Shown here one piece after another: positions 1,369-62,847 of a stretch of 64,000 nucleotides of DNA. The notes beneath the pieces are model-generated. The model made no database searches. It saw nothing but the letters and a program-made list of their open reading frames with translations, and was not told the origin of the DNA. The stretch comes from an uncultured Bacteroidales bacterium (GTDB taxonomy: Bacteria > Bacteroidota > Bacteroidia > Bacteroidales > CAYRRV01). Each line of letters starts with the position of its first letter. Position 1 is the stretch's first letter. The position numbers and the translations under genes were made by a program. The stretch spans positions 81,391 to 145,390 of the forward strand of contig CAYRRV010000004.1 in assembly GCA_964426725.1 (NCBI GenBank), read 5' to 3'.

Positions 1369-2370
1369 ATGGAAAAAAAAGCTACGCGACCTTTAGTTTC
1401 ATTGGGAGTACCTGTTTATAACAAGGGCGAATTTTTAAGTGAATGTCTGCAAAGCATCCTGGATCAGGAATATCAGAATTGGGAATGCGTGATTATTGAT
1501 AATCAAAGTACCGACAATTCCAATGAAGTTGCAAGGCATTTTGCAGAAAAAGATAAACGATTTATCCTGATAAGAAATGAATCATTTGCTGACCAGACAA
1601 CCAATTGGAATATAGCCTTTAAAAAAAGTAATCAAAATGCAAAATACTTTAAACTTGTCCTAGCCGATGATTGGCTTTTCCCAAATTATCTTACTGAGAT
1701 GGTAAGCTTAATGGAAAAGGATGATTCAATTGGAGTATCTTCTTCCTATCAAATCAATGGCCGCAGGGTAACAGGCTGGGGACTTGACTATTATGATGGC
1801 GAGGTGTTGGATGGATTAAAAGTATTAAAAGATCAATTATACCGGAGAGTCGAGATTGCTGGTTCAGCCAATACCGTGTTAATGAGAAATGAAACGCTTA
1901 AAAAGGTTCCCACGTATCCCGACATTTACCATCAGGGAAGCTACATGATTGATGTCGAATTATTCTATGACCTGTTAAACGTTTCCAATTTAGGGTTTAA
2001 ACATAAGATACTCAGTTACACGCGAAGATATGAAGATACATACACGCACCAGTATACCACAGGATTTCAGGGACAATTAGCAGGAAATAACTACCAACTA
2101 TATAAATACAAACACTTGGATGAAGGACTGGAGAAAGTTTACCGCCATCACCGGATGAATTATGCTTATTTTTACGCGAAGGCTTTACTCTTTAATAATA
2201 AAGACTTCATAAAATGGCATAACAGGTATTTACATGTCCCATTTACTCGTGGTGAACTCACCCGTGCCATTTTACTGAAAAATCCGGTAATGCAATTATT
2301 TTCTGAACTGTTAATCAGACTCCGTTTGAAAAAAAGAGTTCAGGTATTTCAATATCCCAGTTTTACATAA
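1369..2370 (+). CDS. Family 2 glycosyltransferase
   Basis: N-terminal SLGVPVYNKGEFLSECLQSILDQEYQNWECVIIDNQSTDNS and a later DD motif (LADDW). Confidence 0.85.
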   Translation: MEKKATRPLVSLGVPVYNKGEFLSECLQSILDQEYQNWECVIIDNQSTDNSNEVARHFAEKDKRFILIRNESFADQTTNWNIAFKKSNQNAKYFKLVLADDWLFPNYLTEMVSLMEKDDSIGVSSSYQINGRRVTGWGLDYYDGEVLDGLKVLKDQLYRRVEIAGSANTVLMRNETLKKVPTYPDIYHQGSYMIDVELFYDLLNVSNLGFKHKILSYTRRYEDTYTHQYTTGFQGQLAGNNYQLYKYKHLDEGLEKVYRHHRMNYAYFYAKALLFNNKDFIKWHNRYLHVPFTRGELTRAILLKNPVMQLFSELLIRLRLKKRVQVFQYPSFT

Positions 2371-19522: not shown

Positions 19523-22500
19523 TTAATTAATGATTAACTTACGTGTCGCCGTTTTTGTACCTGAGACTATTCTCACCAGGTACATTCCTGGCATCAGGCT
19601 GCTAAGATCAAAATTAAATATCGTTTCAAAACTTCCGGCCATTTCTGTTTTACTTGCAACAATTTTCCCATTGGTAGCAAGAATATTAATTTCAACCATT
19701 TCAGCATCAAGGTTGGAAAGGTAAACATTTAACTGCCCTCTTGTTGGATTCGGATATACATCTATTACCATTGAAGACATTTCTTTATTCCCGATGTTTG
19801 CAACCACCCTGTTAGAATGTTGCATTGCCTGCCCGATATTATCGAATCCGGCATCATAATTTTGATTTACCTGTTCCGTATTCAGAGCTTTATGGTACAC
19901 GGCAGCAAGGTATATTTTTCCAAGCCATGCTTTATTTCCTGTTATTTCATTTCCTATAGCCACCGAATAAATCTGGTGCCAGTTATCAAAATTTCCGGAT
20001 TTGGTTCCCTGGGTTATAATTTCACCATTCACGTACAGTGTTTCTTCCCCTGTTACTTTTTTCGTGTACACCACATGCTGAAGACTGGTTTCATAATATT
20101 GCTCAGAACTTTCTAAACATGGGATTCCAGCACTATTTGTAGACGTAGTAGTTAGCCTGGCAGAATAACTATAGCAAGGTTCCTGATTGGGTCCGGGAAC
20201 CTGTAAAATAGAGCCTGCACGCATGTTGTCGCTATAAGATACGGTAAATACCCTGGCTGGACCATCCTGAATGAGACCATTTGGCAATATCCAGGTTTCA
20301 ATTGTAATTTCATTTGTTGATTTACAAGCATCGTATATTTTATCAGCTAAATCATTTGACTGTATAATTGTAGGTGATGTCAATTCTACACCTTGCTCAA
20401 GTATCCAGGATACCTTGCTTTCATCCTTGATTTTCAGATCAAGAGGCTCTCCAAAACCTGATTTGTCATGTACGATATTTCCACTTCCCTCTTTAAAATC
20501 GTAAAGAACAACCAACCCGTCATTTACCCGGTTTGTAGCCGCGGGTTTTTCAGCTTTAACCACAGCAATATTGCTATATGTTTTACCATACTCGTTCGTT
20601 GCTGCAACTTTATAATAATAGGTTATTCCTTCCTCCACCGGGGAATTTACATAAGATGTTTTATTTGCTTCAACCGTGGCAATCCCGGAAAAGTCATTTT
20701 CATCCTCTGCTTTTCTTTCAATAATAAAAGATACCTCATCAACTGATTTATCTTCCCATGTAACTTCAATCTCTGTATCTGAAATCATCCGTGCATCTAT
20801 TTTGGAAGGAGCTACTGGAGGTGCTTCCGGGTGATCTGTCAGGTTCACCCTGATAATTGCGGTATCGGATGTCGTGCCGGATTTGCTGCTGGTGGCAATA
20901 ACTTCGAGTTCAAAATATGGATTTGTTTCATAATCCAGAATTGAATTGTCTATTACTGTTAATTTGCCGGATACCCCATCAAGATTGAAGGTGTTGTTTC
21001 TATTACCGCCAATGATATGAAAATTTATATTGTCTTCACTTCCTTTAACAGTACCGACATAGGTTCCTTCTTCGCTATTCTCCATTAAACTAAATTCCTG
21101 ATTATCTATCAGGTTAACAGTTGTTTCATCACCAGTAATTCCTGCATTATAATTAGTAGCTACCTCGTTTACAGTTAAGGCTTTACTGTAAACAGCAACC
21201 AGGTGGTATGTACCATTGAAAGGATGATTCATTGAAACCTCACTTCCCAGTGCAAGAATGTAAATAGCATGCCATCCTGAAAAATCACCTGATTTAACCC
21301 CTGAAGCAATCAGTTTGTTATTCAGGTATATTTTTTCACTACCTGCATTATCACGGGTGTATACGACATGCTGCGGGGCATTACTTCCAGGCGAGGCTGA
21401 ACCTTCTAGATAGGGTTGCCCGTTATTTTCCGTTTCCGTTGTATTTAATAAGGCCGTGGCCTTGTCCTGATACAGGTCAAGAGAAGCAGCTCTCATGTAA
21501 TCGCTGTAAGCAAGAGTAATAATACGACTGGGATCTGAAAACCCATCATTGCCCGGTGTTATCCATGCTTCCATGGTAATTTCATTAGTAGACTGACATC
21601 CATTGTTTATTTTCATGGCTGACTCATCTGATTTGATGATGGTATTTTCAACAATGCTTAGACCATCTCCACTCCATGATACTTTTTCGGGCTCTGTAAT
21701 AGTAAGGTTAAGAGGTGTGCCATTTCCTGAAACATCATTGACTACAGATCCGGCTCCCTCGTTGAATCGGTATAACGTTAATATGCCTTCTGTTACCCTC
21801 GGGCCCTCTTTAGATACCTGCTCTTCTAAAGTTTTGCTCTCAACAATATTACTAAATGCCGATGACCCGGCCTGATTAATTGCTTTAACCCTGTATTGAT
21901 AAGTAGTTGAAGGATCAAGATTGTTATCCGTGTAAGATGTTGTATTTGAAGAAAGCGTTTCAACAGCATTGTAATTGGTAGCTGATTTCAATTTCTTTTC
22001 AACTATAAAACTTTCTTCATTCGAAGCATTATCAGTCCAAGATAAAGAAACAGAATTAGAGGTAACAACTGATGTTTTTAAATTTGAAGGAGCAGCGGGT
22101 GCAGTTACCTCGTTTTCATCCACATCTGTAAGGTTAACAGTTATCGTGGCGTTGTCACTTAATGTAGATGTTCCATTGTCAGTGACAGTTACAGTAAATG
22201 AAAAAGATTTATTAGTTTCGTAATCAAGCTGGTTTTCATCCGCCACTCTTAACTTCCCGCCGGTTGATTCAACAGAAAACGCACTGGTTCCTGAAAGACT
22301 GTATGAAAGAGTTTGCCCTGCATCCGGATCACTGGCGGAAATGGTTCCTACCAGCGTGCCATTCGCGGAGTTTTCCGGTACAGTAAAAGTCTGATTATTT
22401 ACGACCGGGGCCTGATTTTCATCCTTTGGAGGTGGAGCAACCTCTCCATCGAATTCACAAACACCCATATCAGGCTTGGAACCCTGTGGCACAACACTAT

Positions 22501-23758
22501 TTTCAATATCACTTGTTAAGTTCAGGTTTGTTCCTGCATCTATACACGATGAAGAAGATGATAAATGATAAGTTCCCGATTGAAATTCAGGATTGCCAAC
22601 GAATGAATTTTCACCAATATTTAACCCGTTTGCAGAAGGATAAAAGCAATTGTAATCTTCAGAATACTTTCCCCTGATCACGGTATTAGCCGTATTATGG
22701 AAAATATTATTTTTTATATCTCCATGATCCTGATTGGCAAGTATGCCATTTTCACAATTATCAAAAACATTCTGGTAAATCTGCATCGTTGTACCGGTCG
22801 GGTATGCCGATACAATAGCATAATCCATTTCCTGGAATGTATTATAATAAACTTTCAGATTAGAAGCAGCCGTGTAAATACCATTTATCGAATTGATAAA
22901 GTGATTATAACGGAAAGTTAAATCATTCCCTTTTGTTAGATAAACCGAACCCCCTCCCGGGCTAAGTTTTGGTCCTTTAAGAGTGTTGTATTCAAAAATG
23001 CATGGTTCCGTGTTGTCTGTTATCAGTATAAAACAAAACTTATTCCCTGTTGAGGAATGATCGAGAATATTATTATGAATATGGAATTTTCCTGTTTGAC
23101 CAAGCTGAATACAATCTCCCCCTGAAACCGTTTGATCTTGACTAATGAACCATTTTTGATTGATATCATGAACATGACAGTAACCAATTTCCAGTTCGTC
23201 AATCTCGGCAATAAACATACCATCATCCCCTGTATTATATACTTCCGTGTGCATAATGGTTAATTTACCAGTATGATAATAAGCCCTTATACCCCATTGT
23301 GCTCCATGAATTTTCATGTTGAGCAGGGTGATGTTGGATGAATTAAAAATATGGATACAACTTGTCGCGTTATTGGTAGATTCAATTTCAATACCGTCAA
23401 TTGTAACATCCTTAAGCCCACCAAGATCAAGTATTTTAGTGCCATCTCCTCCTGTACTTCTAAAAACAGGATGGGCCCCGGTTCCATAAGCACCAATCTT
23501 TACATTACTTGCCGGACGCAACCTTCCTGATGTCAGAAAAACCGTGCCGGCCTTTTGGAGATATGTAGAACCCTGAGTCCATGTTACATCATCCCACGAA
23601 TCAAAAGGATGAAGTTCTGAACCGTTTTCACTTGGGTCATTCACGTTGGTTGGATCAATATAAATAGTTTGTGCAGAAAGATTAAACCACATGAAGGCCA
23701 AAAAAAATAATCCAAAAAATCTACCAGTGAATCTCCTAACCTGTTTTATTGTCTTCAT
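19523..23758 (-). CDS. Giant secreted T9SS cargo (1411 aa): beta-helix domain, then [cadherin-like, FN3, LamG/ConA-like] x2, then the Por C-terminal sorting domain
   Basis: Signal peptide ending ...NLSAQ. Beta-helix spans aa 31-440. Cadherin-like segments (ENSANGTLVGTISASDPD...LDYETN...VTVTD and ENSEEGTYVGTV...LDYETN...). FN3 segments (SLSWTDNASNEESFIVEKK...YQYRVKA and EVTWEDKSVDEVSFIIERK...YYYKVAA). LamG segments (STNEITMEAWI and STNEITIETWI). CTD VIDVYPNPTRGQLNV...GMYLVRI. Confidence 0.85.
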   Translation of the reverse strand: MKTIKQVRRFTGRFFGLFFLAFMWFNLSAQTIYIDPTNVNDPSENGSELHPFDSWDDVTWTQGSTYLQKAGTVFLTSGRLRPASNVKIGAYGTGAHPVFRSTGGDGTKILDLGGLKDVTIDGIEIESTNNATSCIHIFNSSNITLLNMKIHGAQWGIRAYYHTGKLTIMHTEVYNTGDDGMFIAEIDELEIGYCHVHDINQKWFISQDQTVSGGDCIQLGQTGKFHIHNNILDHSSTGNKFCFILITDNTEPCIFEYNTLKGPKLSPGGGSVYLTKGNDLTFRYNHFINSINGIYTAASNLKVYYNTFQEMDYAIVSAYPTGTTMQIYQNVFDNCENGILANQDHGDIKNNIFHNTANTVIRGKYSEDYNCFYPSANGLNIGENSFVGNPEFQSGTYHLSSSSSCIDAGTNLNLTSDIENSVVPQGSKPDMGVCEFDGEVAPPPKDENQAPVVNNQTFTVPENSANGTLVGTISASDPDAGQTLSYSLSGTSAFSVESTGGKLRVADENQLDYETNKSFSFTVTVTDNGTSTLSDNATITVNLTDVDENEVTAPAAPSNLKTSVVTSNSVSLSWTDNASNEESFIVEKKLKSATNYNAVETLSSNTTSYTDNNLDPSTTYQYRVKAINQAGSSAFSNIVESKTLEEQVSKEGPRVTEGILTLYRFNEGAGSVVNDVSGNGTPLNLTITEPEKVSWSGDGLSIVENTIIKSDESAMKINNGCQSTNEITMEAWITPGNDGFSDPSRIITLAYSDYMRAASLDLYQDKATALLNTTETENNGQPYLEGSASPGSNAPQHVVYTRDNAGSEKIYLNNKLIASGVKSGDFSGWHAIYILALGSEVSMNHPFNGTYHLVAVYSKALTVNEVATNYNAGITGDETTVNLIDNQEFSLMENSEEGTYVGTVKGSEDNINFHIIGGNRNNTFNLDGVSGKLTVIDNSILDYETNPYFELEVIATSSKSGTTSDTAIIRVNLTDHPEAPPVAPSKIDARMISDTEIEVTWEDKSVDEVSFIIERKAEDENDFSGIATVEANKTSYVNSPVEEGITYYYKVAATNEYGKTYSNIAVVKAEKPAATNRVNDGLVVLYDFKEGSGNIVHDKSGFGEPLDLKIKDESKVSWILEQGVELTSPTIIQSNDLADKIYDACKSTNEITIETWILPNGLIQDGPARVFTVSYSDNMRAGSILQVPGPNQEPCYSYSARLTTTSTNSAGIPCLESSEQYYETSLQHVVYTKKVTGEETLYVNGEIITQGTKSGNFDNWHQIYSVAIGNEITGNKAWLGKIYLAAVYHKALNTEQVNQNYDAGFDNIGQAMQHSNRVVANIGNKEMSSMVIDVYPNPTRGQLNVYLSNLDAEMVEINILATNGKIVASKTEMAGSFETIFNFDLSSLMPGMYLVRIVSGTKTATRKLIIN
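19844..21121 (-). repeat. Module copy 2 (aa ~880-1305) of the intragenic cadherin-FN3-LamG duplication
   Basis: See copy 1. Shared landmarks are LDYETN, VNLTD, SF(I/V)(V/I)E(K/R)K, LY.F.EG.G..V.D.SG.G.PL.L and KSTNEIT.E.WI. Confidence 0.7.
21134..22417 (-). repeat. Module copy 1 (aa ~448-875) of the intragenic cadherin-FN3-LamG duplication
   Basis: It aligns domain for domain with aa ~880-1305. Both copies end in ..NY(N/D)AG. The copies are diverged at protein level. Confidence 0.7.
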
Positions 23759-25065: not shown

Positions 25066-27534
25066 ATGAAAAACGAAGAAGTATTACCAGGCCGTATAGA
25101 TGTTAAAGAAATTCTTAACAGGTTCCTCGAGTACAAATGGTACTATATTGCCATTATTACATTATTTCTTGCCGGAGCCTATTTAAAAAATAAATACGCT
25201 CCCGTTATCTATGAGAATACAGCAACCATTCTAATAAACACGGATAATAAGAATGGATTTATGAACAAGGATGATCTTTTTTCCAATTTCGGTCTTTTTG
25301 GAGCTGACAAGAATATCGAAAATGAAATTGGCATTTTAAAATCTTTCACACTAATTAAGAATACTATTTCTTCACTGAATTTCGAGGTCGGCTATTTTTT
25401 CGAGGAGAATATTATTAATGTGGCTCCCCTGCAGGATTTCGATTTTAATATAATTAATACAAGTCTTTATAAAGAAGCTCCAGTGAAAGTCAACCTGGAT
25501 CGGTCACATAATCAACCCATTGATGTTTTGTTTTACGTGGATATACTAAGTGATACGACTTTCCGTATTCAGGCACGAGGTACTGATGTGAGCCTGTATA
25601 ATTATATTGACAATAACGTGGTCCGTAAAATAAGAAATTTTTCAATCGATAAAGTATACAAATTCGGGGAAACCATCGTGGATAAGAATTATAGTTTCAC
25701 TGTCACCAAAAACCCGGAAGGGTATTCCGATATACCCGTTGGAAAATTGTTTTATTTTCAGCTTTATCATCTTGATTACCTGACATTACAATACCGAAAT
25801 AATCTCACGATAAACAAGGCAAACGAAAATGCATCGTTAATTAACATAAGCATAAACGGGTACAACCAGAGAAAAATCACTGAATTCATAAATGTTTTTA
25901 TTGATAAGTACCTGGAGACCAACCTTGTCAAGAAGAACAAGGTTGCCCTGAGTACAGTAAGTTTTATTGATAACCAGATCTCGGAAGTGGCTGATTCATT
26001 AAGTGCAGCCGAATATACGCTGGAAAGTTTTCGCTCAAGAAACAAGGTGATGGACCTGGGTTACCAGGGGCAAAAACTATACGAACGATTAGGTGAATTT
26101 GAACGGGAAAAGGCCAATTTAAATACCCAACAAAGATATTATCAATGGGTAATAGATTATTTTGATAATAATAAAGAAGGATACGCCGATATTGTTCCCC
26201 CTTCATCCATGAACGTGGTCGATCCACTGCTTACCAAACTGATAGAAGAATTCGTAACTCTCAATTCAGAACGCAAAAACCTCGTGAATAATAGACAAAC
26301 AAAAAGTCTTCATTTAAGCAGTCTTGAAAACAAAATATCGAACCTGCGACAAACCATCCTGGAGAATGTCCGGAATAACCTGAATACCGTGAACATGTCT
26401 ATTAATGAAATCAATTACCAGGAAAATCAATTATCAGGTCAGATCTCGAATCTTCCTAAAACAGAACTGAAATTGCTGGGTATTGAGAGAAATTTCGAGC
26501 TAAACAATACCATATATACTTATCTTCTCCAAAAAAGAGCAGAGGCTCAGATTGCAGCGGTTTCGAATACACCTGATTATGATGTGGTAGATGAAGCAAG
26601 GCTTATCATGTCAGGTCCTGTTGCTCCCAAGAGAAAACTGAACTATATTATAGCTCTTTTCCTTGGACTCGCCTTACCCTCGGGAGTAATTCTGCTCCGT
26701 GACTATCTTAATAATACGCTGGTAAGTGAGCAGGATATTGAACATTACACGCACCATCCGGTTATAGGAACCATTTATCGGAATAACAAGGGAGTACCCA
26801 ACGTGGTCGCGGCATATAATAAATCAGCCATAACCGAATCATTCCGCGCTGTCCGTACTAACCTCCAGATCATGTTTAAAGGCAAGATGAACCGGACTGT
26901 TATAGTGACCTCTTCAACAGGGGGTGAAGGAAAAACATTTACAGCGCTTAATCTAGCCTCGGCATTTGCCAGTTTCGGCTCAAGGGCCGTTCTTGTAGGA
27001 TTTGACCTCCGTAAACCCACCATGCACGAGAAAATTGGAGCCAATAATATAGTCGGTTTGAGTAATTACCTCAGCGAAAGAGCAGGATTCAATGATATTG
27101 TGCAGAAAACAAACATTGAAAATCTTGATTTCATCCCGGCAGGCCCCATACCTCCCAATCCATCTGAATTAATTGCTTCCGAAAGAGCTATTCTTCTCTT
27201 TACTGAACTTAAACGAAGGTATAGCTATATAGTAGTGGATTCGGCTCCATTGGGTGCCGTCTCCGATAGTTACCTGCTGATGAATCATGGTGACGCCACA
27301 ATATTCGTGGTACGCCAGAATTACACGCACAAAGACATTTTCAAGGACACCATGAAACAATTAAGACACAATAAACTCGATGAAAACGTGTACTTCGTGT
27401 TGAACGATGTTACCAAGCGCGGTGCCAAAGCATATGGTTATAACGCCAAGTACTATGATGAAGAGGAAGTCAACACCAAAACCAAAATCACCAGCTTTTT
27501 AAAAAAGGATGTAAAGAAAAAACACTCCGCCTGA
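25066..27534 (+). CDS. wzc: Wzc/GumC-type chain-length determinant fused to a BY-kinase (tyrosine autokinase)
   Basis: 822 aa with a Wzz-like N-terminus (2 TM and a long coiled-coil periplasmic region). Walker A VTSSTGGEGKT, Walker A' VLVGFDLRKP and Walker B YIVVDSAP. C-terminal Tyr cluster KAYGYNAKYYDEEE. Confidence 0.9.
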   Translation: MKNEEVLPGRIDVKEILNRFLEYKWYYIAIITLFLAGAYLKNKYAPVIYENTATILINTDNKNGFMNKDDLFSNFGLFGADKNIENEIGILKSFTLIKNTISSLNFEVGYFFEENIINVAPLQDFDFNIINTSLYKEAPVKVNLDRSHNQPIDVLFYVDILSDTTFRIQARGTDVSLYNYIDNNVVRKIRNFSIDKVYKFGETIVDKNYSFTVTKNPEGYSDIPVGKLFYFQLYHLDYLTLQYRNNLTINKANENASLINISINGYNQRKITEFINVFIDKYLETNLVKKNKVALSTVSFIDNQISEVADSLSAAEYTLESFRSRNKVMDLGYQGQKLYERLGEFEREKANLNTQQRYYQWVIDYFDNNKEGYADIVPPSSMNVVDPLLTKLIEEFVTLNSERKNLVNNRQTKSLHLSSLENKISNLRQTILENVRNNLNTVNMSINEINYQENQLSGQISNLPKTELKLLGIERNFELNNTIYTYLLQKRAEAQIAAVSNTPDYDVVDEARLIMSGPVAPKRKLNYIIALFLGLALPSGVILLRDYLNNTLVSEQDIEHYTHHPVIGTIYRNNKGVPNVVAAYNKSAITESFRAVRTNLQIMFKGKMNRTVIVTSSTGGEGKTFTALNLASAFASFGSRAVLVGFDLRKPTMHEKIGANNIVGLSNYLSERAGFNDIVQKTNIENLDFIPAGPIPPNPSELIASERAILLFTELKRRYSYIVVDSAPLGAVSDSYLLMNHGDATIFVVRQNYTHKDIFKDTMKQLRHNKLDENVYFVLNDVTKRGAKAYGYNAKYYDEEEVNTKTKITSFLKKDVKKKHSA

Positions 27535-27639
27535 TGATTCCTGCCTTTTCAGGTATCAGAATATATTTAACAGCAATGGTATCCGATTAAAAATCGAATT
27601 ATTTATTTTGCCATCATGCCGGGCAGGAATTACAAAAAT

Positions 27640-27739
27640 GATAGAGCGATAGGGCGATGAGGCGAGATTGCGTGCGGACGTGATTGGGTAATTGCGTAAT
27701 TATGTGATCGTATTTGGGCGTGATTGTGTTATTGCGTAC
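27640..27739. repeat. Octamer-phased degenerate tandem array A (12.5 units of 8 nt)
   Basis: GATAGAGC GATAGGGC GATGAGGC GAGATTGC GTGCGGAC GTGATTGG GTAATTGC GTAATTAT GTGATCGT ATTTGGGC GTGATTGT GTTATTGC GTAC parses with no indel. It shares its 5' end (ATGATAGAGCGATAGGG) with the array at 52831. Confidence 0.85.
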
Positions 27740-27920
27740 TTTTTTAAAAATAATCGATATTTCATAAGCTTTTAACGCGTTACCCGGTAGTATGGTATCC
27801 AGTTTGTCAAATCCTTCACTATTCATTAAAAATCCCATGAAATACATGATTTCATTGTTGCAGGATGCTGTTTCATGGTACATGAGATCGCGAACAGGTA
27901 TGGAAAAGACAATGTAACAT

Positions 27921-27955
27921 AAAAAACCCTCTCACGAAAGTGGAGGGCTTTTCAG
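27921..27955 (-). terminator. Rho-independent terminator downstream of the WbaP-like gene (possibly bidirectional)
   Basis: CCCTCTCAC GAAA GTGGAGGG hairpin (27927-27948). On the minus strand it is followed by TTTTTT and on the plus strand by CTTTTC. Confidence 0.7.
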
Positions 27956-27983: not shown

Positions 27984-29450
27984 TTATAATCCCGATCTTG
28001 AAAAGACCGTTCGGATGGTTTTGAAAAGGAGTGTGAAATCCTCAATAATTGACCAGTTATCAATATAATTTAAATCCAGTTTCATCCATTTCTCGAAACT
28101 CACGCTATTCCGGTTTGGTATTATCTGCCAGGTACAAGTGATACCAGGCTTAACAGACAAGCGGCGCAATTGCCATGTTTCGTATTGTTCAACCTCACTT
28201 GGTAACGGGGGCCTTGGTCCTATCATAGACATCTCACCCCTGAAAACATTGAGCAACTGAGGTAATTCATCAAGTCCTGTTTTTCTTAAAATATGCCCTA
28301 TTTTGGTTATTCTTGGATCATTTGTCATTTTAAACACGGGGCCATCCATCTCATTTTTGGCTTCCAACTCCTTTCGTAATTGTTCAGCATTAGGAACCAT
28401 GGTCCTGAACTTGTATATCATGAATTTACGTCCTCTTTTACCCACTCTTTCCTGCTTGAAAAAGACAGGACCTCCCGGTGAATCGATTTTTATCGCGAGA
28501 GCAAGGAGTAATAATACCGGAGAAAGAAACAGTAACATTAACCCGGAAAATATCAAATCCGATAAATTCTTGAAAAATAACAATAAATTATCCGAGGGAA
28601 GATTGATATAATTCAAAACAGGCATTCCGGCAGGTTCACGTAAATCAATATCAAATGATTGCAGGGGTGATAATTCTGACTGCATCCTGAATATTACACC
28701 TATTTCCCTTGAAGTACTAACTATTTCTGCAACTTTCTCCCTGTCAATTTTCTTTTTACTGTAAACTATCTCGTCTATGATATCATGTTTCAGTAAACTT
28801 TTAATATTCACGTTTTCTGAAAGTATTTTTAGTTTACTTCCATACTTGGCCCTGATGAGTTTTGAGTTTGATAGTACCATGATAACCCTGAATCCCCACT
28901 CCTTGTTATGAATCAAACGATCGATAAAAAGATCAGAGTACTGATCGGCAATTACCAAAACGTTATGGAGGTTATGACCATGACTCCGGTGAACTTTAAA
29001 AACCTTATATGTTAATACCCTGTGCAGGTATATAGAAAGGTTGTTGATAATGAAAAACCCGGTCAGCATCAAAACACTAACTTCCGCCAAACCGAAAAGC
29101 AAACGGAAAATAAATAACATTACCAGGCCGATAATATTAACCTGGAATAATTCAATAAAAATTGTAAAATAGACAGTTGTTCGTGGTACCTTAGGTAAAT
29201 TGGTTAGTCTCAACAAGAAAGGATATAAAGCAAGAATTAATCCTGCCATTATCCAGTAATCCGAGTGGATTTTAGTAACTCCCGAAATAATCCTGAAAAG
29301 ATGCAACGACATCAGGAATGAAACCACAACTACCATCAGGTCAAGAATACCCAGACCAAACATGATAAGATTCCTGTAAGCGACATATTTTTGGGGAGTT
29401 ATTCGACGTAATTTCTCGAATTTCTTGATGAATAAACGAGCATATGGCAT
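27984..29450 (-). CDS. Polyprenyl-phosphate glycosyl-1-phosphate transferase (WbaP/bacterial sugar transferase family), the initiating enzyme
   Basis: N-terminal TM bundle and a central Rossmann-like region. The C-terminal domain PGGPVFFKQERVGKRGRKFMIYKFRTM...DPRITKIGHILRKTGLDELPQLLNVFRGEMSMIGPRP is the canonical Bac_transf motif. The ATG at 29450 is preferred over the GTG at 29549. Confidence 0.9.
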   Translation of the reverse strand: MPYARLFIKKFEKLRRITPQKYVAYRNLIMFGLGILDLMVVVVSFLMSLHLFRIISGVTKIHSDYWIMAGLILALYPFLLRLTNLPKVPRTTVYFTIFIELFQVNIIGLVMLFIFRLLFGLAEVSVLMLTGFFIINNLSIYLHRVLTYKVFKVHRSHGHNLHNVLVIADQYSDLFIDRLIHNKEWGFRVIMVLSNSKLIRAKYGSKLKILSENVNIKSLLKHDIIDEIVYSKKKIDREKVAEIVSTSREIGVIFRMQSELSPLQSFDIDLREPAGMPVLNYINLPSDNLLLFFKNLSDLIFSGLMLLFLSPVLLLLALAIKIDSPGGPVFFKQERVGKRGRKFMIYKFRTMVPNAEQLRKELEAKNEMDGPVFKMTNDPRITKIGHILRKTGLDELPQLLNVFRGEMSMIGPRPPLPSEVEQYETWQLRRLSVKPGITCTWQIIPNRNSVSFEKWMKLDLNYIDNWSIIEDFTLLFKTIRTVFSRSGL

Positions 29451-29861
29451 ATCAATTGGTTTTAGGTTTAGGTTTTTAAATTTAGGTTTTTTGTTTAAAA
29501 TCACTCTTACTATAATATTAAGTAATTGTGATTGTAAATAGACAAACACCTGGTAATTGATATTGTTGATGGTTTAATAATGATAAATTTTCTATTTTGA
29601 CCTACGGGTAAAATAATTGGACGAAATACTAAAATCAGGTTATTAATTTTTTTTCAATCTATATTCCGAGTTTTTCTTATTTGATTTTAATAAAAATAAT
29701 AGACCTTGAATTGCCTGATAGATGGAACAATCCTCATATTCATGTATTTAACCTGAGGCTCTATAATCAGACCAATATATTTGAATTGGATTAAACAATA
29801 ATTATTGTCAACTGTTTAAGAATAACCAAACCATTTACAAATAAATCGTAGAATAATCAAA

Positions 29862-30245
29862 ATGACCGAGTATACAGTAGATGAATCACCGAAAACACCA
29901 TATATCCACTTTGAGGATAACAGGTTTATTTTCCGGGGAAAATCAATCCCGGAAGATGCCCGGAAATTTTACAGGGTAGCAAGAGACAAGGCCAAAGATT
30001 ACCTTGAAGAAAGAGTAGGCAGCAAGACTCAGATAGAATTCCATTTTGAGTATTGTGATACCAGTACTGTAAAATGGATTGTTGATTTTCTGCGCATGTT
30101 TGAATCATGTCAGAAAAAAAATCCTGCAATAGACATTAGCGTGATCTGGAAATACGAATCAGATGATGAAGAAATGCTGGACCTTGGAGAATTTATTCAG
30201 GCACATTCCGTTCTGCCTTTTACATTTATCCCTGCAGATTTATAA
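29862..30245 (+). CDS. DUF1987 / SiaC-family protein
   Basis: TPYIHFEDNRFIFRGKSIPEDARKFY...IEFHFEYCDTSTVKWIVDFLRMF matches the DUF1987 pattern (TP.I.F....G...I.G.S.PE....FY ... YFNTSS.K). Confidence 0.75.
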   Translation: MTEYTVDESPKTPYIHFEDNRFIFRGKSIPEDARKFYRVARDKAKDYLEERVGSKTQIEFHFEYCDTSTVKWIVDFLRMFESCQKKNPAIDISVIWKYESDDEEMLDLGEFIQAHSVLPFTFIPADL

Positions 30246-50728: not shown

Positions 50729-51103
50729 TCAAAATTCTGTTTCCGCGCACTCTATAAACTCAAATTCAGCATTGAGCAGACTGGCATAATGTTCCCCGGT
50801 TTCCTTGCTGTCGTAATCTCCTTCCTCGTAATGCCACTTAACAACTACTTTTTTCACACTCTGGTTTACAGCAAAAGTCTTGATTAGATCATATATTTTT
50901 TTTGACGATGCCGTGTTAAAATATTCCATTTTGAACTGTATAATAATAGTATCCGTGTTCACATCATTAGCCCACTGGAATAACGGTTCATAAAAAACAT
51001 TCGGATCTTCCGGGAGAGAACGCCCTGCCATCATAATCTCCCCATTGGGATTAAAGTCGATTTGAGGCGTATCAACTGTTCCTTCTAAAATAATTCTGTC
51101 CAT
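50729..51103 (-). CDS. DUF1987 / SiaC-family protein (second copy in the window)
   Basis: MDRIILEGTVDTPQIDFNPNGEIMMAGRSLPEDPNVFYEPLFQW...MEYFNTASSKKIYDLI is a very typical DUF1987 sequence. The ATG at 51103 is preferred. Confidence 0.8.
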   Translation of the reverse strand: MDRIILEGTVDTPQIDFNPNGEIMMAGRSLPEDPNVFYEPLFQWANDVNTDTIIIQFKMEYFNTASSKKIYDLIKTFAVNQSVKKVVVKWHYEEGDYDSKETGEHYASLLNAEFEFIECAETEF

Positions 51104-51286
51104 TTTAATAACATTTGATTCGAGCATTACACAAAGTAAATAAAAAAAAAGGTAGAACAAGATATATTCCTTGTCATTTTTACTAACGATTTGATAAGTT
51201 AACAGAAAAACAGGATAAAAGTTTTATTTAATATCATCACCACGTGTAAAAGTTAGATAAGGGCATGATTATTAATTTTTTACAGT

Positions 51287-52696
51287 TCAATCCGCGCTCA
51301 TTCTCACTATTTTCGGGTAAAAGATGGCAATAATATTAACCAATTCTTCCTGTAATGCCATTACTTTCTCAATGTTTTTATAAGCAAATGGAGATTCATC
51401 AATATCTCCTCCAATTAATTCAATTCCCGCTTTTTTTAAAAAATGATCAAGATCTTTTTTCGAGAATCTTTTTTTGGCTTCATTGCGGCTCATCAACCGG
51501 CCGGCGCCATGAGAGGCCGAGTTAATGGATTCCATGTTCCCCTTTCCTGATACTACAAAGCCCGGCGTGGCCATTGACCCGGGAATTATCCCTGTAGTAT
51601 GAAGGCTTGCAGGCGTGGCTCCCTTGCGATGAACAATAGCCTCTTTCCCGTTATCCAGTTTTTCTTTCCAGGCGAAATTATGATGGTTTTCAATTACAAC
51701 GATGGGTTGTTCACCGAGAACTTTGGATATTTTCTGATGGATAATATAATGATTAGCCGATGCATAATCACCCGCGAGATTCATGGCTTTCCAGTATTCC
51801 TGTCCCTCGTTTGTGTCAAGATAAAACCAGGCAAGGTTTTTTGCCCCACTTGGAAGTTTACAGGACTGTTTCGCCAACCTGGTATAATATGAAGCGATCC
51901 CGGCGCCAAAATTTCTTGACCCGGAATGTGATAAAAGGGCTAAAAAGGGGCCCTTCCCAGGAAAAAGTGGGTGTTTATCATCCAATATCTCAAGAATGCC
52001 GAATTCGACAAAATGGTTACCACTTCCTGAACTTCCAAGCTGACTGTATGCCTTGTCTTTTAAAGATCTCAGTATTTTGATCTCTTTGAATTCCTGCCTT
52101 TCCATAACCTCGTGATCATTTCTAACCCTCATGTCCTTTTTGCCAAAATGAGTATTATTAAGAAGTATTGACTTTAGCCAATCCAGTTTATGGTTTAGTA
52201 TTTCAGTACCCAGGCTAAATACCGAAAGACACATCCTGCAACCGATATCCATTCCAACCCCGTATGGAATTACCGCGTTATCGACGGCCAACACCCCACC
52301 AATTGGTAACCCGTAACCCTGATGTGCATCAGGCATGAGTGCTCCCTGCAGCGCTATGGGTAACTGCATGGCCATATCCATCTGAATTCTCGAACCTTCA
52401 TCTATATAATCATCACCAAAAATCCTGTAATTTTTACGTTTTACCAATTCTATCTTTTCTGATAGTACCCCCGGCTTATTTTTAGATTCAACAAGTTCTC
52501 CGGCAATTTCCGACCAAACAGTATCTTCCCGGAAATCATCAGGGGACGATATCAATCTATCAAGTATTTCCAGTACTCCGGTTTTATTTAATTGTCCCCT
52601 GAACTGCTTATGAGCTGTTTTCATCACGACCGGGATAATATCTGCCGGGTAGCCTAAACGACGAAGATCCTTGTTCCGGATATTGAGTTTTTTCAT
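51287..52696 (-). CDS. rtcB: RNA-splicing ligase RtcB (3'-phosphate/5'-hydroxyl RNA ligase)
   Basis: MPDAHQGYGLPIGGV, GVDIGC-like GMDIGCRM, GSGNHFVEF, SHSGSRNFG, NHHNFA, HRKGAT, GIIPGSMATPGFVV and HGAGR. Confidence 0.95.
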   Translation of the reverse strand: MKKLNIRNKDLRRLGYPADIIPVVMKTAHKQFRGQLNKTGVLEILDRLISSPDDFREDTVWSEIAGELVESKNKPGVLSEKIELVKRKNYRIFGDDYIDEGSRIQMDMAMQLPIALQGALMPDAHQGYGLPIGGVLAVDNAVIPYGVGMDIGCRMCLSVFSLGTEILNHKLDWLKSILLNNTHFGKKDMRVRNDHEVMERQEFKEIKILRSLKDKAYSQLGSSGSGNHFVEFGILEILDDKHPLFPGKGPFLALLSHSGSRNFGAGIASYYTRLAKQSCKLPSGAKNLAWFYLDTNEGQEYWKAMNLAGDYASANHYIIHQKISKVLGEQPIVVIENHHNFAWKEKLDNGKEAIVHRKGATPASLHTTGIIPGSMATPGFVVSGKGNMESINSASHGAGRLMSRNEAKKRFSKKDLDHFLKKAGIELIGGDIDESPFAYKNIEKVMALQEELVNIIAIFYPKIVRMSAD

Positions 52697-52830
52697 TATT
52701 AGCCTGTTTTATTCAATTACAAATTCTTAATTATTGGTCACGATAAAACTTGTCACTCATACAAAACATTCAAATTTAATACTTTATTGCTGTCAAAAAA
52801 TTTAATTTAACCGGGTTTCGCGTCACAGAT

Positions 52831-52990
52831 GATAGAGCGATAGGGTAATGAAGCGATGAGGCGATGAAGCGTGATTGAGTAATTGTGTGATTGCGTAATT
52901 GAGTAATTGAGTTTGAATATAGAAACGCAATAACGTCCATACGTCCACACGCAAATACGTACACACGCAAACACGTCCACACGCAATAAC
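52831..52990. repeat. Octamer-phased array B: forward arm (11 units), a 6-nt spacer, then an inverted arm (8 units)
   Basis: Forward arm: GATAGAGC GATAGGGT AATGAAGC GATGAGGC GATGAAGC GTGATTGA GTAATTGT GTGATTGC GTAATTGA GTAATTGA GTTTGAAT. Spacer ATAGAA. Inverted arm: ACGCAATA ACGTCCAT ACGTCCAC ACGCAAAT ACGTACAC ACGCAAAC ACGTCCAC ACGCAATA AC, which is the reverse-complement orientation of the same unit family. Confidence 0.85.
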
Positions 52991-53003
52991 GGTGAAATAT
53001 CAA

Positions 53004-53222
53004 TTAAAATAAAGTGGGATGATTGTCGAACAAGGTGGGATGATCCTCTTCGAATGTTTTTAGAACGTGGGTGATGATAGCTTCCCTCATGAATTTTGAT
53101 CGATTTTTAACCTTGTACTTTTTGCAATACTGCTCAATGGCAGAAACTTCTTTATTGTTAAAAAGTACACTTTTCCGATTGATTCGTTTTAGATCATGGT
53201 TTTTCAGGTTTCTCTTTCTCAC
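53004..53222 (-). CDS. Small ribbon-helix-helix-like protein (72 aa) with a tandem C-terminal HPTLF motif
   Basis: RKSVLFNNKEVSAIEQYCKKYKVKNRSKFMREAIITHV has the strand-helix-helix pattern of CopG/Arc/MetJ proteins. The C-terminus is EDHPTLFDNHPTLF*. Confidence 0.45.
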   Translation of the reverse strand: MRKRNLKNHDLKRINRKSVLFNNKEVSAIEQYCKKYKVKNRSKFMREAIITHVLKTFEEDHPTLFDNHPTLF

Positions 53223-55162: not shown

Positions 55163-57814
55163 ATGCACGCTGATGATGTAATTGCCAACAAGACGAAAGA
55201 CCAAGAAAAGAATGAAGAAAAAAATAAAAAGGTGAAAGAAGAGATCAAAACAGACAACAAAAAAATAAAGAACGGACAAAAAGCTTATTCTTATGACGAG
55301 GCAGTAAAAAAATCACTTGAGTATTTTCAAGGTGATGAATTAGCTGCCACGGTATGGGTGAACAAGTACGCTTTAAAAGATTCGTTCGGGCATATTTTTG
55401 AACAAGACCCGGATGATATGCATTGGCGTCTTGCAAGGGAAATAGCCAGAATAGAAAAGAAATACAAGAATCCGCTTCCTGTAGAAAAAGTATATGAATT
55501 ATTTAAAGATTTCCGTTATATTGTACCGCAGGGTAGTCCCATGACCGGGATCGGGAATAAATTTCAGATTGCTTCTCTCTCCAACTGTTTTGTAATTGGA
55601 AGTGATGGTCCTTCTGACAGTTACGGTGCCATCATGAAGATCGATCAGGAACAAGTTCAGTTGATGAAAAGAAGAGGAGGGGTAGGGCACGATTTAAGTC
55701 ATATCAGGCCTTATGGAAGCCCAGTATTGAATAGTGCACTTACCTCAACCGGTGTGGTGCCATTCATGGAAAGATACTCCAATTCTACCCGCGAAGTGGC
55801 CCAGGATGGAAGAAGAGGGGCTCTTATGTTAAGCATTTCCATACAGCATCCTGACGCCGAAAAGTTCATTGATGCAAAACTTGAAAAAGGGAAAGTTACC
55901 GGTGCCAATGTTTCTGTCAGGATTAATGATGAATTCATGCAGGCCGTGGTTGACAACAAACCTTACAAGCAACAGTATCCTATCGACGTGGATAACCCGA
56001 AAGTTGTTAAAGAAATTGACGCGGGAAAATTATGGGGGAAAATTGTGCATAATGCCTGGCGCTCTGCTGAACCGGGAATTCTTTTCTGGGATACCATAAT
56101 CAATGAATCTGTTCCTGACTGTTACGCGGATTTAGGTTATAAAACAGTATCAACCAATCCTTGCGGAGAGATACCACTTTGCCCCTACGATAGCTGCCGT
56201 CTTTTGGCAATCAATCTTTATAGCTACGTGGAAAATCCATTTACACGTAAAGCAATATTTAATTTCGAGCTTTTCCGCCAGCATGTGAAATACGCGCAGC
56301 GCATCATGGATGATATTATTGATCTTGAGCTTGAGAAAATTGATGCAATCCTGGAAAAAATCACCTCTGACCCGGAAGAGGCGGAAATAAAAAGAGTAGA
56401 GAAGAAACTGTGGGATAGCATTCGTATAAAAGCCGAAGAAGGACGTCGCACGGGAATTGGAATCACGGCAGAAGGCGATATGCTTGCTGCCCTGGGGCTA
56501 AGGTATGGAAGTGAAGACGCGGTTGATTTTTCTGAAGAGATACATAAAACCATAGCGATCGAGGCATACAGGGGATCTGTTGAACTGGCAAAAGAAAGAG
56601 GACCTTTCGGCATCTTTGACGCGCATCGTGAAAAAAATAATCCCTTTATTCAACGCCTGAAAAACGAAGATGAACAATTATACAGGGATATGCAAAAATA
56701 TGGTCGCCGTAACATTGCATTACTTACCATTGCTCCTACCGGAACCACCAGCTTAATGACACAGACCACCTCTGGAATCGAACCTGTTTTTCTCCCGGTT
56801 TACAAGCGCAGAAGAAAGGTTAATCCCAATGATAAATCTGCCAGGGTTAACTTTGTAGATGAAGTTGGCGATAGCTGGGAAGAATATAATGTCTTCCACC
56901 ACAAGTTTAAAACATGGTTAGAAATAAATGGATATAATATCGAAGAAGTGAAAAAGATGGGAGATGAGGAAATTGAACAACTAATCAGCCAATCTCCATA
57001 CGCGAAAGCCACTTCTAATGATGTTGACTGGGTTAGCAAAGTGAAAATGCAGGGAAGAATACAAAAATGGGTGGATCACTCGATCAGTGTAACCATTAAT
57101 CTCCCTAATAATGTCTCCGAGGAACTGGTAGGTGAATTATATGTTGCCGGCTGGCAAAGTGGCTGTAAAGGAATTACGGTATACAGGGATGGATCAAGAT
57201 CCGGTGTATTATTATCGGGTAAAGAGAAAAGTGAAGGACAAACGACTCCTAATGTTATTCTACCGGAAAGCATTAAACGACCCAGGGATCTCGATGCCGA
57301 AATAATCCGGTTCAATAACAATTCCGAAAAATGGATAGCTTTCGTGGGAATTAAAAATAATAAACCTTACGAGATATTTACAGGTATCGATGACGAGGAA
57401 ATGTATCCCATTCCTAAATCCATTACCAGGGGTAAAATCATTAAAACAAAAGATGATGACGGTAAAACCCGGTACGATTTCCAGTATGTTGATAAATATG
57501 GCTACAAGAACACGCTGGGTGGGCTTTCCCACATGTTCAATAAAGAATTCTGGAACTATGCAAAACTTATCTCGGGCGTGTTGAGGTATGGTATGCCCAT
57601 ACCCGACGTGGTAAATCTTGTTTCATCGCTCCGGCTTGACAGCGATACCATTAATACCTGGAAAAATGGCGTGGAAAGAGCTTTAAAGAAATATATTCCC
57701 GATGGTACCAAGGCAAAAAAAGGTACCAAATGTGGCAATTGCGGGTCGACATCACTGGTCTACCAGGAAGGGTGCCTTAGCTGTCAGAGCTGCGGTAATA
57801 CAAAGTGCGGGTAA
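55163..57814 (+). CDS. nrdJ: Class II (adenosylcobalamin-dependent) ribonucleotide reductase
   Basis: STNPCGEIPLCPYDSCRLLAINL (active-site Cys loop), TIAPTGTTSL, and a C-terminal Cys-rich tail CGNCGSTSLVYQEGCLSCQSCGNTKCG. 883 aa. Confidence 0.9.
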   Translation: MHADDVIANKTKDQEKNEEKNKKVKEEIKTDNKKIKNGQKAYSYDEAVKKSLEYFQGDELAATVWVNKYALKDSFGHIFEQDPDDMHWRLAREIARIEKKYKNPLPVEKVYELFKDFRYIVPQGSPMTGIGNKFQIASLSNCFVIGSDGPSDSYGAIMKIDQEQVQLMKRRGGVGHDLSHIRPYGSPVLNSALTSTGVVPFMERYSNSTREVAQDGRRGALMLSISIQHPDAEKFIDAKLEKGKVTGANVSVRINDEFMQAVVDNKPYKQQYPIDVDNPKVVKEIDAGKLWGKIVHNAWRSAEPGILFWDTIINESVPDCYADLGYKTVSTNPCGEIPLCPYDSCRLLAINLYSYVENPFTRKAIFNFELFRQHVKYAQRIMDDIIDLELEKIDAILEKITSDPEEAEIKRVEKKLWDSIRIKAEEGRRTGIGITAEGDMLAALGLRYGSEDAVDFSEEIHKTIAIEAYRGSVELAKERGPFGIFDAHREKNNPFIQRLKNEDEQLYRDMQKYGRRNIALLTIAPTGTTSLMTQTTSGIEPVFLPVYKRRRKVNPNDKSARVNFVDEVGDSWEEYNVFHHKFKTWLEINGYNIEEVKKMGDEEIEQLISQSPYAKATSNDVDWVSKVKMQGRIQKWVDHSISVTINLPNNVSEELVGELYVAGWQSGCKGITVYRDGSRSGVLLSGKEKSEGQTTPNVILPESIKRPRDLDAEIIRFNNNSEKWIAFVGIKNNKPYEIFTGIDDEEMYPIPKSITRGKIIKTKDDDGKTRYDFQYVDKYGYKNTLGGLSHMFNKEFWNYAKLISGVLRYGMPIPDVVNLVSSLRLDSDTINTWKNGVERALKKYIPDGTKAKKGTKCGNCGSTSLVYQEGCLSCQSCGNTKCG

Positions 57815-62633: not shown

Positions 62634-62847
62634 AATGTTTCGCACTTGATTAGTCTTTTAATATTCAACCCTTTTAGGGTTGTCTCTCATGTCATTTTTC
62701 ACTCCGGGGCATGTCCCCGTGCTATTCACATTAAAATATTTCAGACTTTTAACCACGAATGTGGTTAAATTGATAAACAATGAATTAGTAACCCTGAAGG
62801 GGATGAAAGTGGTTAATATTAAATCTAATATACAGGTGCGAAACATT
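62634..62847. mobile_element. 214-bp MITE-like or structured element bounded by terminal inverted repeats
   Basis: AATGTTTCGCAC (62634-62645) against GTGCGAAACATT (62836-62847) is a perfect 12-bp repeat. It extends imperfectly to about 35 bp (..CTTG-ATTAG-TTTTAATATT). Internal hairpins: CGGGG-catgt-CCCCG (62705-62719) and TTAACCAC-gaat-GTGGTTAA (62749-62768). Confidence 0.5.

Follow-up and report, generated by a model that had tools for sequence, protein, structure and literature searches.

Two related degenerate octamer arrays on a Bacteroidota chromosome resemble RHH protein-binding arrays in their layout

The chromosomal stretch analyzed here (64,000 nucleotides, referred to below as the window) comes from the MAG of an uncultured member of the Bacteroidota and is largely taken up by a polysaccharide-synthesis locus; it harbors two related noncoding arrays of phase-locked box-spacer octamers, which are lineage specific and have been remodeled by the slippage or conversion of whole units. 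It is tentatively proposed, by analogy with characterized systems, that these arrays may represent a slippage-remodeled docking platform for a dimeric DNA-binding protein of the ribbon-helix-helix (RHH) type. What is new here is a degenerate 8-bp tandem array on a Bacteroidota chromosome, local to its lineage, which by its sequence has the layout of an RHH array.

Array 1 is located between the wzc and wbaP-like genes, which are convergent (Table 1). Read on the plus strand from position 27640, its units 1 to 6 are GATAGAGC GATAGGGC GATGAGGC GAGATTGC GTGCGGAC GTGATTGG, and its units 7 to 12 are GTAATTGC GTAATTAT GTGATCGT ATTTGGGC GTGATTGT GTTATTGC, followed by GTAC and a T6 run. The first-pass annotation of this DNA had described the tract as 12.5 in-phase octamers without an indel, flanked by convergent wzc and wbaP-like genes, and this description agrees both with the sequence as written and with the Pfam domains and strands of the flanking genes. 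A recount of the units returned the same figures as reported there, with G at position 1 in 11 of the 12 and a final C in 8 of the 12, to which may be added G at position 7 in 10 of the 12. The unit types are ordered, such that GATRRRGC units (units 1 to 4) are followed by a single GTGCGGAC and then by GTRATTGN-like units. The lag-8 self-identity of array 1 is 0.565 (z of approximately 5.9), compared to a mean of 0.283 (standard deviation, 0.048; maximum, 0.435) across 2000 dinucleotide-preserving shuffles; this value was reached by none of the 2000, and the best of lags 4 to 12 in any shuffle did not exceed 0.473. Lags 16 and 24 yield 0.55 and 0.54, with all lags that are not multiples of 8 at or below 0.37. 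A lag-8 scan, which the first-pass annotation had proposed for the whole genome and its relatives, was performed over the entire 64-kb window, in which only two sites are outstanding (27587 to 27775 and 52801 to 53020). A third, weak peak at 55177 to 55289 corresponds to an A-rich coding stretch whose identity is high at every lag, and a further ~6 kb added beyond the window contained no additional array. Tandem Repeats Finder recovered only fragments of 2.4 to 6.4 copies from the arrays because the units are so degenerate.

Table 1. Coordinates of the two arrays and of associated features within the window
Feature	Position	Strand	Basis or remark
Wzc gene	25066-27534	+	Wzz, GNVR and AAA_31 domains (Pfam)
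89-aa ORF, C-terminal third read from array 1	27614-27883	-	Judged spurious or orphan
17-nt head ATGATAGAGCGATAGGG of array 1	27637-27653	+	Identical to 52828-52844; unchanged in any strain compared
Array 1, 12 degenerate octamers + GTAC, single phase (12.5 units)	27640-27739	+	Sequence, lag-8 identity
T6 run directly 3' of array 1	27740-27745	+	Read from sequence
wbaP-like gene terminator hairpin	~27927-27948	-	-19.6 kcal/mol, z = -5.6, then U6
WbaP-like sugar transferase gene	27984-29549	-	Pfam
rtcB promoter, Bacteroidetes type (TTTG 52797-52794 + TAAATTTG 52778-52771)	52771-52797	-	Pattern match
17-nt head ATGATAGAGCGATAGGG, second copy, at array 2 start	52828-52844	+	Sequence identity
Array 2 left arm, 10 octamers, G-rich on plus strand	52831-52910	+	Sequence, lag-8
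Quasi-palindromic center GTTTGAATATAGAAAC, 16 nt = two units, in phase	52911-52926	.	Unit orientation switches here
Array 2 right arm, 8 octamers, G-rich on minus strand	52927-52990	-	Sequence
72-aa RHH-like gene, candidate binding protein	53004-53222	-	Subthreshold Pfam, AlphaFold, fold search

Array 2 spans 160 nt (52831 to 52990) and comprises 20 units, with a lag-8 identity of 0.605. Its left arm contains five GATRRRGC-type and five GTRATTGN-type units, the latter including GTAATTGA twice, and unit-to-unit identity within this arm declines from 5.6/8 between neighbors to 2.3 to 3.0/8 between units that are six to nine apart. The right arm, which reads GTTATTGC GTGTGGAC GTGTTTGC GTGTGTAC GTATTTGC GTGTGGAC GTATGGAC GTTATTGC, begins at a distance of 96 nt (12 x 8) from the start of the left arm, and all 160 nt are, therefore, in one phase. 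RCGT is invariant in 8/8 right-arm units, across which a higher-order period of 16 nt was also detected (Tandem Repeats Finder, 90% matches at 52939 to 52986). Array 1 and the left arm of array 2 display the same order of unit types and are 60 to 62% identical in phase at offsets of 0, +8, and +16, and their first 17 nt are, as the first-pass annotation had noted, identical (Table 1). The two arrays are situated 25 kb apart between unrelated flanks, where both flank homology and target-site duplications were sought and neither was found. The earlier suggestion of a dispersed element family is only partly supported, in that two copies exist at this distance; beyond these, the head signature returned chance matches only, and a third copy is no more than hinted at by where assemblies break.

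The distribution of information within the units indicates a 4-nt box followed by a 4-nt spacer, since it is concentrated at positions 7, 8, 1, and 2 (1.4 to 2.4 bits at positions 7 and 1), while positions 3 to 6 hold 0.1 to 1.0 bits. When right-arm units are read 2 nt out of phase, G occurs at position 7 in 28 of 30 units and at position 1 in 24 of 30, and the conservation of G1, G7, and C8 extends over three different unit types. Read on the G-rich strand, the box is RCGW, which corresponds to ACNC or TCGC on the other; the overall skeleton of the C-rich strand is xCxC, the commonest boxes being ACGC, TCGC, and ACGT. On the minus strand the arrays read ACTC-AATT, ACTC-AATT, ACGC-AATC, ACAC-AATT, ACTC-AATC, and so forth. 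Within array 2, the type II block features ACTC three times, in addition to ACGC and ACAC, with AATT or AATC as the spacer. Periodic ACNC and RCGW patterns are confined to the two arrays within the 64 kb (0.0 to 0.1 expected). Any AT-richness of the array 1 spacers is slight, at 67% A+T (32/48) versus an average of 62% for the window/genome. Neighboring units are on average identical at 4.6 to 5.6/8 positions, and thus lack the near-identity expected of the units of a simple sequence repeat. The two arms of array 2 are only ~50 to 60% complementary, and no RNA fold of either array, on either strand, was better than those of shuffles (z = -1.35, -0.98, and -1.09), which argues that the inversion reorients the boxes rather than forming a stem.

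Regarding the genes that surround the arrays, array 2 is positioned between the 72-aa RHH-like gene, which terminates at a stop codon 13 nt away from the right arm, and rtcB, while no RHH gene adjoins array 1. TTTG and TAnnTTTG are the consensus elements of Bacteroidetes sigma-A promoters, and the only TAnnTTTG near either array is that of the rtcB promoter, the -33 element of which is 33 nt from the head of array 2. No promoter of the Bacteroidetes type was found reading into either array, which favors a role at the level of DNA. Downstream of wbaP, the canonical terminator reported in the first-pass annotation was recovered on the minus strand (Table 1), having been missed by a simple terminator scan because its stem is bulged. 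For wzc, the scan identified no canonical terminator; a 12-bp long-range stem (27535 to 27546 paired with 27623 to 27634) is present 3' of its stop codon (27534). Pfam analysis of 38 of the 42 ORFs of at least 150 aa detected no ParA/ParF or ParG and no transposase, integrase, or relaxase, and no partition or mobile-element genes were found in the window by this means; the sole MinD/ParA-type fold among the ORFs so scanned is the Wzc kinase domain.

The RHH-like character of the 72-aa protein is suggested by subthreshold Pfam matches to MobC_2 (E = 0.0024) and RHH_1 (E = 0.064) and by an AlphaFold model in which an extended strand precedes helices at 23 to 35 and 41 to 60. A fold search of the PDB returned mostly RHH proteins, all at a nonsignificant E of >0.5, and a sequence-profile search of the PDB returned no match. 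The protein has 106 homologs, which, where source names are given, derive from Bacteroidales or Bacteroidota; the family is mainly one of Bacteroidales, is usually encoded beside polysaccharide-synthesis genes, and possesses a C terminus resembling a sliding-clamp-binding motif. It does not match the ParG model PF09274 and is 10 to 15% identical to the plasmid proteins, and is thus not a relative of ParG. RHH orthologs in five relatives are followed by gaps of 5 to 70 nt in which there is no array, nor are period-8 tetramer pairs present nearby.

The first-pass annotation had found no described repeat or RNA class for array 1, a position which is not supported with regard to repeats, as the arrays fit the prokaryotic 5- to 11-nt repeats that vary by whole units (PMC4679880) and, by their layout, the tetramer-box arrays of RHH proteins (PMC3130281). 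In TP228, parH extends over ~100 bp and consists of 12 degenerate 5'-ACTC-3' boxes with regular 4-bp AT-rich spacers, while the operator OF contains 8 boxes that are both direct and inverted; ParG binds cooperatively, with one RHH dimer per box, to a layout that is tolerant of rearrangement (Wu et al. 2011, PMC3130281). Lag-8 identity is only 0.50 in L063, a bona fide parH-OF region of the TP228 type that includes variant ACAC boxes, from which it follows that strict phase combined with degenerate units is the appearance of a working array. The window arrays similarly present 4-bp boxes every 8 bp over 12.5 (array 1) and 20 (array 2) units, in both orientations and without a phase break, and their degeneracy is comparable (0.57 to 0.61 at lag 8, versus 0.50 in L063). 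Further points of resemblance are the units on the C-rich strand (ACTC/ACGC/ACAC plus AATT/AATC), the GTAATTGA arrays located next to parA/parG on Vibrio and Buttiauxella plasmids (see below), and the RHH-like gene directly beside array 2. In contrast to parH/OF, the arrays are chromosomal, are accompanied by neither ParA/ParF nor ParG in 64 kb, and neighbor an RHH gene of another family. Moreover, GCGW or ACGT predominates as the box in place of ACTC, the spacers show no clear AT bias, the purine-rich GATRRRGC block is without a parH counterpart, and two sites 25 kb apart are involved.

Two further RHH systems invite comparison, and in both cases the resemblance is partial. MetJ is an RHH repressor that binds as one dimer per 8-bp metbox (consensus AGACGTCT) in tandem arrays of 2 to 5 units, which are found at the promoters of met genes in Gammaproteobacteria. 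The window arrays share with these operators an ACGT core every 8 bp, with RCGT in 8/8 units of the array 2 right arm, and both GGACGTGT and GGACGTAT match the metbox at 6/8 positions; unlike MetJ operators, they occur in a window without met genes, and no MetJ homolog was seen. The Omega repressor of pSM19035 is an RHH protein that occupies 7 to 10 WATCACW heptads in direct and inverted orientation. Common to both cases would be the coating of short nonpalindromic repeats in either orientation by an RHH protein, and the window units contain AATCAC; the Omega arrays differ in their period of 7 rather than 8 and in their setting, a Firmicutes plasmid with a partner ATPase.

Under the docking proposal, each box would be bound by one RHH dimer and neighboring dimers, 8 bp apart, would be in contact, so that ~100 to 160 bp would be cooperatively coated, in the manner of ParG at TP228 parH/OF and of MetJ at metboxes repeated every 8 bp. 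The candidate coat protein is the RHH-like product (72 aa) of the gene located 13 nt from array 2. Measured from the inferred rtcB start, coated array 2 would cover approximately -65 to -225, flanked by the RHH gene and rtcB, and coated array 1 would cover the site at which the wzc and wbaP operons converge; at either place such structures might represent roadblocks, insulators, or upstream operators, with the gain and loss of units tuning the number of sites. The case for function derives from the layout match, the adjacency of the RHH gene, the perfectly conserved head, and the box positions common to unit types; against it stand the lack of ParA/ParG, the unrelated RHH family, the lack of arrays at orthologous RHH genes, and the lack of long-term conservation. 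Should the arrays indeed be protein coated, the "one dimer per 8 bp" layout of RHH proteins at plasmid centromeres and met operators would also exist on Bacteroidota chromosomes, here beside genes for capsule/LPS and beside rtcB, which encodes an RNA-repair ligase, and with a number of sites that changes by slippage. A more specific and rather speculative form of this idea, to which we attach little probability, would regard the arrays as chromosomal parH-type box arrays without ParA, in which a small, mainly Bacteroidales RHH protein would coat lineage-specific octamers situated upstream of rtcB and where envelope-polysaccharide operons end, thereby forming a nucleoprotein roadblock or operator with a strength tuned as slippage alters the unit number; the arrays would then be a contingency or insulator element of a new kind.

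Nearly as likely as docking is the possibility that the arrays are functionless hypermutable tandem repeats, as a degenerate and compound form of the 5- to 11-nt simple sequence repeats or of the cyanobacterial short tandem repeats (STRR), which would have arisen by slipped-strand events, been copied once by illegitimate recombination, and been scrambled by slippage and interunit conversion, any effects (spurious ORFs, assembly breaks, or altered spacing) being incidental. All evolution that was actually observed fits such an origin. Contigs from other assemblies of the same organism are 98.4 to 100% identical to the window at the nucleotide level, the lowest value, that of strain L002, being mainly attributable to a 32-nt deletion. 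This deletion removes four units of array 2 in phase (52940 to 52971) and is accompanied by two transitions in the left arm, one of which (at 52868) converts a unit to a form already present in the array. The ~3 events in the 160-nt array 2 of L002 compare with 9 SNPs in ~3000 nt of flank (~0.3%); strain L001 has one SNP (52955) in the 106 nt of array 2 covered, versus 5 in ~5700 nt, and strain L003, the sole strain spanning array 1, is identical to the window across it. The greater likeness of neighboring than of distant units and the 16-nt period of the right arm, as described above, likewise agree with slippage and conversion between units.

The arrays are also absent from the nearest relatives. 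In the nearest other species available (84% identity in WbaP and 74% in the RHH protein), the wbaP terminator is retained on contig L062 and is followed by unrelated sequence, with neither array 1 nor the 89-aa ORF, and the RHH gene is followed 3' by a gap of only 69 nt, without array 2; four further RHH ortholog loci are similarly devoid of an array. The first-pass annotation had considered that absence of the 8-nt phase from orthologous intergenic regions, together with a lack of other copies, would indicate a one-off slippage product: the phase is indeed absent from the sister-species locus, but a second copy does exist (52831 to 52990). Searches with a 21-nt head signature, GATAGAGCGATAGGGNNATGA, yielded one chance match (Rhizobium) among 185,579 species-representative genomes, one chance match in GC-rich coding DNA among JGI metagenomes, and nothing in the IMG/VR viral collection. 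A viral scan with GTRATTGNGTRATTGNGTRATTG yielded 36 loci, mostly unrelated perfect 8-mer microsatellites that do not constitute one family (source genomes at 43 to 60% G+C for the eleven contigs checked), and the compound perfect 8-mer arrays among these unrelated viral contigs (e.g., L023 and L034) are a further point in favor of a functionless repeat. Array 2 had no match in a phage collection. Absence from relatives and collections, coupled with variation between strains, indicates that the arrays are young, lineage specific, and evolving by whole units, and their absence from the sister species at both loci, together with this variation, leaves no sign of long-term constraint.

Such behavior is known from other short repeats. 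Dispersed intergenic arrays of 5- to 11-nt units have been described in various bacteria, Bacteroidetes included (MacGregor 2015 and work reviewed therein, PMC4679880), among them the TAACTGA heptamer arrays of Beggiatoaceae, Cyanobacteria, and Bacteroidetes and the cyanobacterial STRR heptamers. Heptamer arrays undergo indels in unit increments, are absent from close relatives, may mix unit types, and cause contigs to end inside repeats (PMC4679880), a behavior which speaks for the functionless account. The window arrays resemble these repeats in being intergenic, in the recurrence of the same unit at several loci, in their mixed units, in whole-unit differences between strains, in the array-free state of close relatives, and in assembly breaks inside arrays, several contigs of other assemblies of this organism ending in or at an array. 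They differ from the STRR and TAACTGA heptamers in a unit length of 8 rather than 7 nt, in far greater degeneracy, in being seen at two loci, in the inversion around a center (array 2), and in their box-spacer units. A functionless origin is also at odds with several properties of the arrays themselves. The 17-nt head is identical in arrays whose bodies are 60% identical, a run of 17 straight matches having P of ~2e-4 at 60% identity; G1, G7, and C8 are retained across three unit types; and strict phase is maintained over 100 and 160 nt despite ~40% unit divergence, without an out-of-phase indel. It would, furthermore, demand that chance account both for the resemblance to parH in layout and for the presence of an RHH gene only 13 nt away (P of roughly 0.02 for the latter, a post hoc estimate). 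Even if functionless, the arrays generate spurious ORFs and break short-read assemblies, and they demonstrate that in-phase degenerate repeats escape standard tandem-repeat finders.

An RNA-level role in termination or insulation appears unlikely. By this account, wzc transcripts would meet a G/U-rich imperfect hairpin and U6, transcripts of the opposite strand would meet 80 to 100 nt of C-rich, G-poor, unstructured RNA akin to a Rho-loading site, and array 2, by showing a C-rich arm both ways, would keep the RHH gene and rtcB apart. RNA read from the minus strand of array 1 does have unusually little structure (-13 kcal/mol for 161 nt; z = +1.7), the composition is strongly strand skewed, and GUAAUUGC-type units are self-complementary as RNA on the plus strand only, via G-U pairs. 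The occurrence of each array shortly after the end of a gene (wzc for array 1, the RHH gene for array 2), as well as the T6 run after array 1 where wzc has no other canonical terminator, would also be in keeping with such a role, and the T6 run and the G/U-rich imperfect plus-strand fold, itself no better than shuffles, could act as a weak wzc terminator. Other observations are in conflict with it: neither array folds better than shuffles, the arms of array 2 are poorly complementary, and no T-run directly follows array 2. Rfam, a search of which had been advised in the first-pass annotation, reported only 2 tRNAs in the window at gathering thresholds and no family overlapping either array even at E of ≤1. 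Nor is an 8-nt period known to be linked to Rho loading. A compact intrinsic terminator was rejected as a candidate for the arrays, neither of which has one in the scan, though T6 follows array 1; the earlier statement that array 1 is not a simple hairpin terminator is consistent with its folding. The earlier exclusion of a CRISPR array is equally sound, given contiguous units of 8 nt as opposed to repeats of ~23 to 50 nt with unique spacers.

It is less probable still that the arrays are a MITE-like element, or the scar or attachment site of a mobile element with which rtcB (array 2) and the segment carrying the 89-aa ORF (array 1) arrived. Such an event might be read from relative L051, where siaC directly follows the RHH gene, while in the window array 2 and rtcB intervene, and from the sister species, whose sequence past the wbaP terminator differs completely; the head is, moreover, common to both arrays. 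In Logan assemblies of two samples, contigs break at one and the same 30-mer in the head of array 1, which is suggestive, though not proof, of a further copy. Small mobile elements were nonetheless rejected as a class, as there are only two copies, no terminal inverted repeats (the arms being 50 to 60% complementary), no target-site duplication seen, unrelated flanks, no transposase, integrase, or relaxase among the Pfam-scanned ORFs, and no occurrence of the head signature above chance in three collections.

That the 89-aa ORF is a real small gene whose periodicity reflects a peptide repeat is highly improbable, for although its frame is open over 89 codons and the sole between-strain indel within it is of 3 nt, an 8-nt period is incompatible with a codon repeat, the ORF is absent from the sister species, in which the region is replaced, it has no Pfam match, and no homolog except a shorter copy of itself was found among 5.8 billion proteins. 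These results concur with its earlier dismissal as an artifact and reveal no conservation of the kind by which the first-pass annotation would have recognized a gene; the translation given there for a pure repeat, (AATCACGC)3 to NHAITQSR, is correct. For the analogous ORF from array 2, two unrelated repetitive proteins were the only HMMER matches, and no stop codon interrupts any of the three minus-strand frames within array 2, as is expected of stop-poor DNA. Searches with array-derived ORFs, pursued as a route to other arrays called as genes, brought none to light.

Plasmid sequences were also searched by BLAST, in which array 1 and the right arm of array 2 returned nothing useful, while array 2 matched perfect GTAATTGA arrays, which read ACTC plus AATT on the other strand. 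Eleven GTAATTGA copies abut the parA start codon of Vibrio vulnificus pYJ016, where a 72-aa protein is encoded after parA; five copies start 12 nt after a Pfam-confirmed ParG gene in Buttiauxella pBTX_57; and six copies overlap the stop codon of a small gene after parA in V. tasmaniensis p1. Perfect GTAATTGA arrays flanking ParA/ParG cassettes thus offer a simple signature for type Ib centromeres that are unannotated in these plasmid records.

Homologues of the RHH-like protein encoded beside array 2 are, where they carry a source name, from Bacteroidales or Bacteroidota, and most members of the family in alignments A1 and A2 terminate in ...DEDYPTLF followed, at the very C-terminus, by Q(L/M)(S/T)LF, an ending which resembles the beta-sliding-clamp-binding motif QL[SD]LF. 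The copy in the window harbors HPTLFDNHPTLF in place of this ending. No PDB sequence match was found for the family.

Perfect GTAATTGA arrays of 5 to 11 copies, which read ACTC+AATT on the opposite strand, abut parA/parG-type partition cassettes in Vibrio vulnificus pYJ016, Buttiauxella pBTX_57, and V. tasmaniensis p1, and probably represent centromeres or operators at these sites; they have no entry in the PLSDB feature tables used for these plasmids. A Paraburkholderia megaplasmid carries six copies of GTAATTGC; its record lists no genes there.

Coordinates of features in the window and in the compared plasmid loci
Feature	Location	Strand	Remark
Envelope-polysaccharide locus (large)	window 1-29549		
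1411-aa gene	19523-23758		adjoins envelope-polysaccharide locus
Inverted repeat, 11-12 bp, TGATTCCTGCC ... GGCAGGAATTA	window 27535-27634		
Second siaC paralogue	29862-30245		adjoins wbaP-like gene, near array 1
RHH-like gene	53004-53222	-	family conserved in alignments A1 and A2
Plasmid octamer arrays	L058 2459-2550; L059 2001-2044; L060 1995-2042; L061 about 2001-2048		

In relatives, the usual neighbors of the RHH family are polysaccharide-synthesis genes. In one relative (L051, 10001-10652), a siaC-family gene directly follows the RHH gene, while array 2 and rtcB lie between the two in the window (50729-53222), and rtcB, judged on this gene order, therefore looks like a lineage-specific insertion. 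Besides Wza, Wzc, and a WbaP-like transferase, the envelope-polysaccharide locus encodes glycosyltransferases, a flippase, and both acyl- and methyltransferases. The product on the matching strain contig (L003) that corresponds in length and position to the 1411-aa gene has a T9SS sorting tail as well as cadherin, FN3, and laminin-G domains.

The inverted repeat, located directly 3' of the wzc stop codon and just ahead of array 1, encloses approximately 76 nt, and the fold of the interval that it spans (z = -2.7) was equalled by 1 of 200 shuffles. On the sister-species contig (L062, 1715-2145), ORF89 and array 1 are replaced by >440 nt of GC-richer sequence, which stands after the conserved wbaP terminator, contains CCCGGG-type palindromes, and returned no convincing Rfam match.

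Short tandem-repeat arrays with units of 7, 8, and 9 nt were also observed in many intergenic gaps of two phage-like IMG/VR contigs, L039 and L033 (whole loci), which are apparently similar to each other; several of these arrays are followed by their own inverted copy, as in the case of GTGATTGA repeats followed by TCAATCAC repeats. One gene product of L033 is a Fic protein, and another is scaffold-like. Away from the arrays, Logan contigs of two independent samples share a start point at the palindrome AACCCTTTTAGGGTT (window 62667-62681), an assembly break which is unrelated to the octamer arrays.
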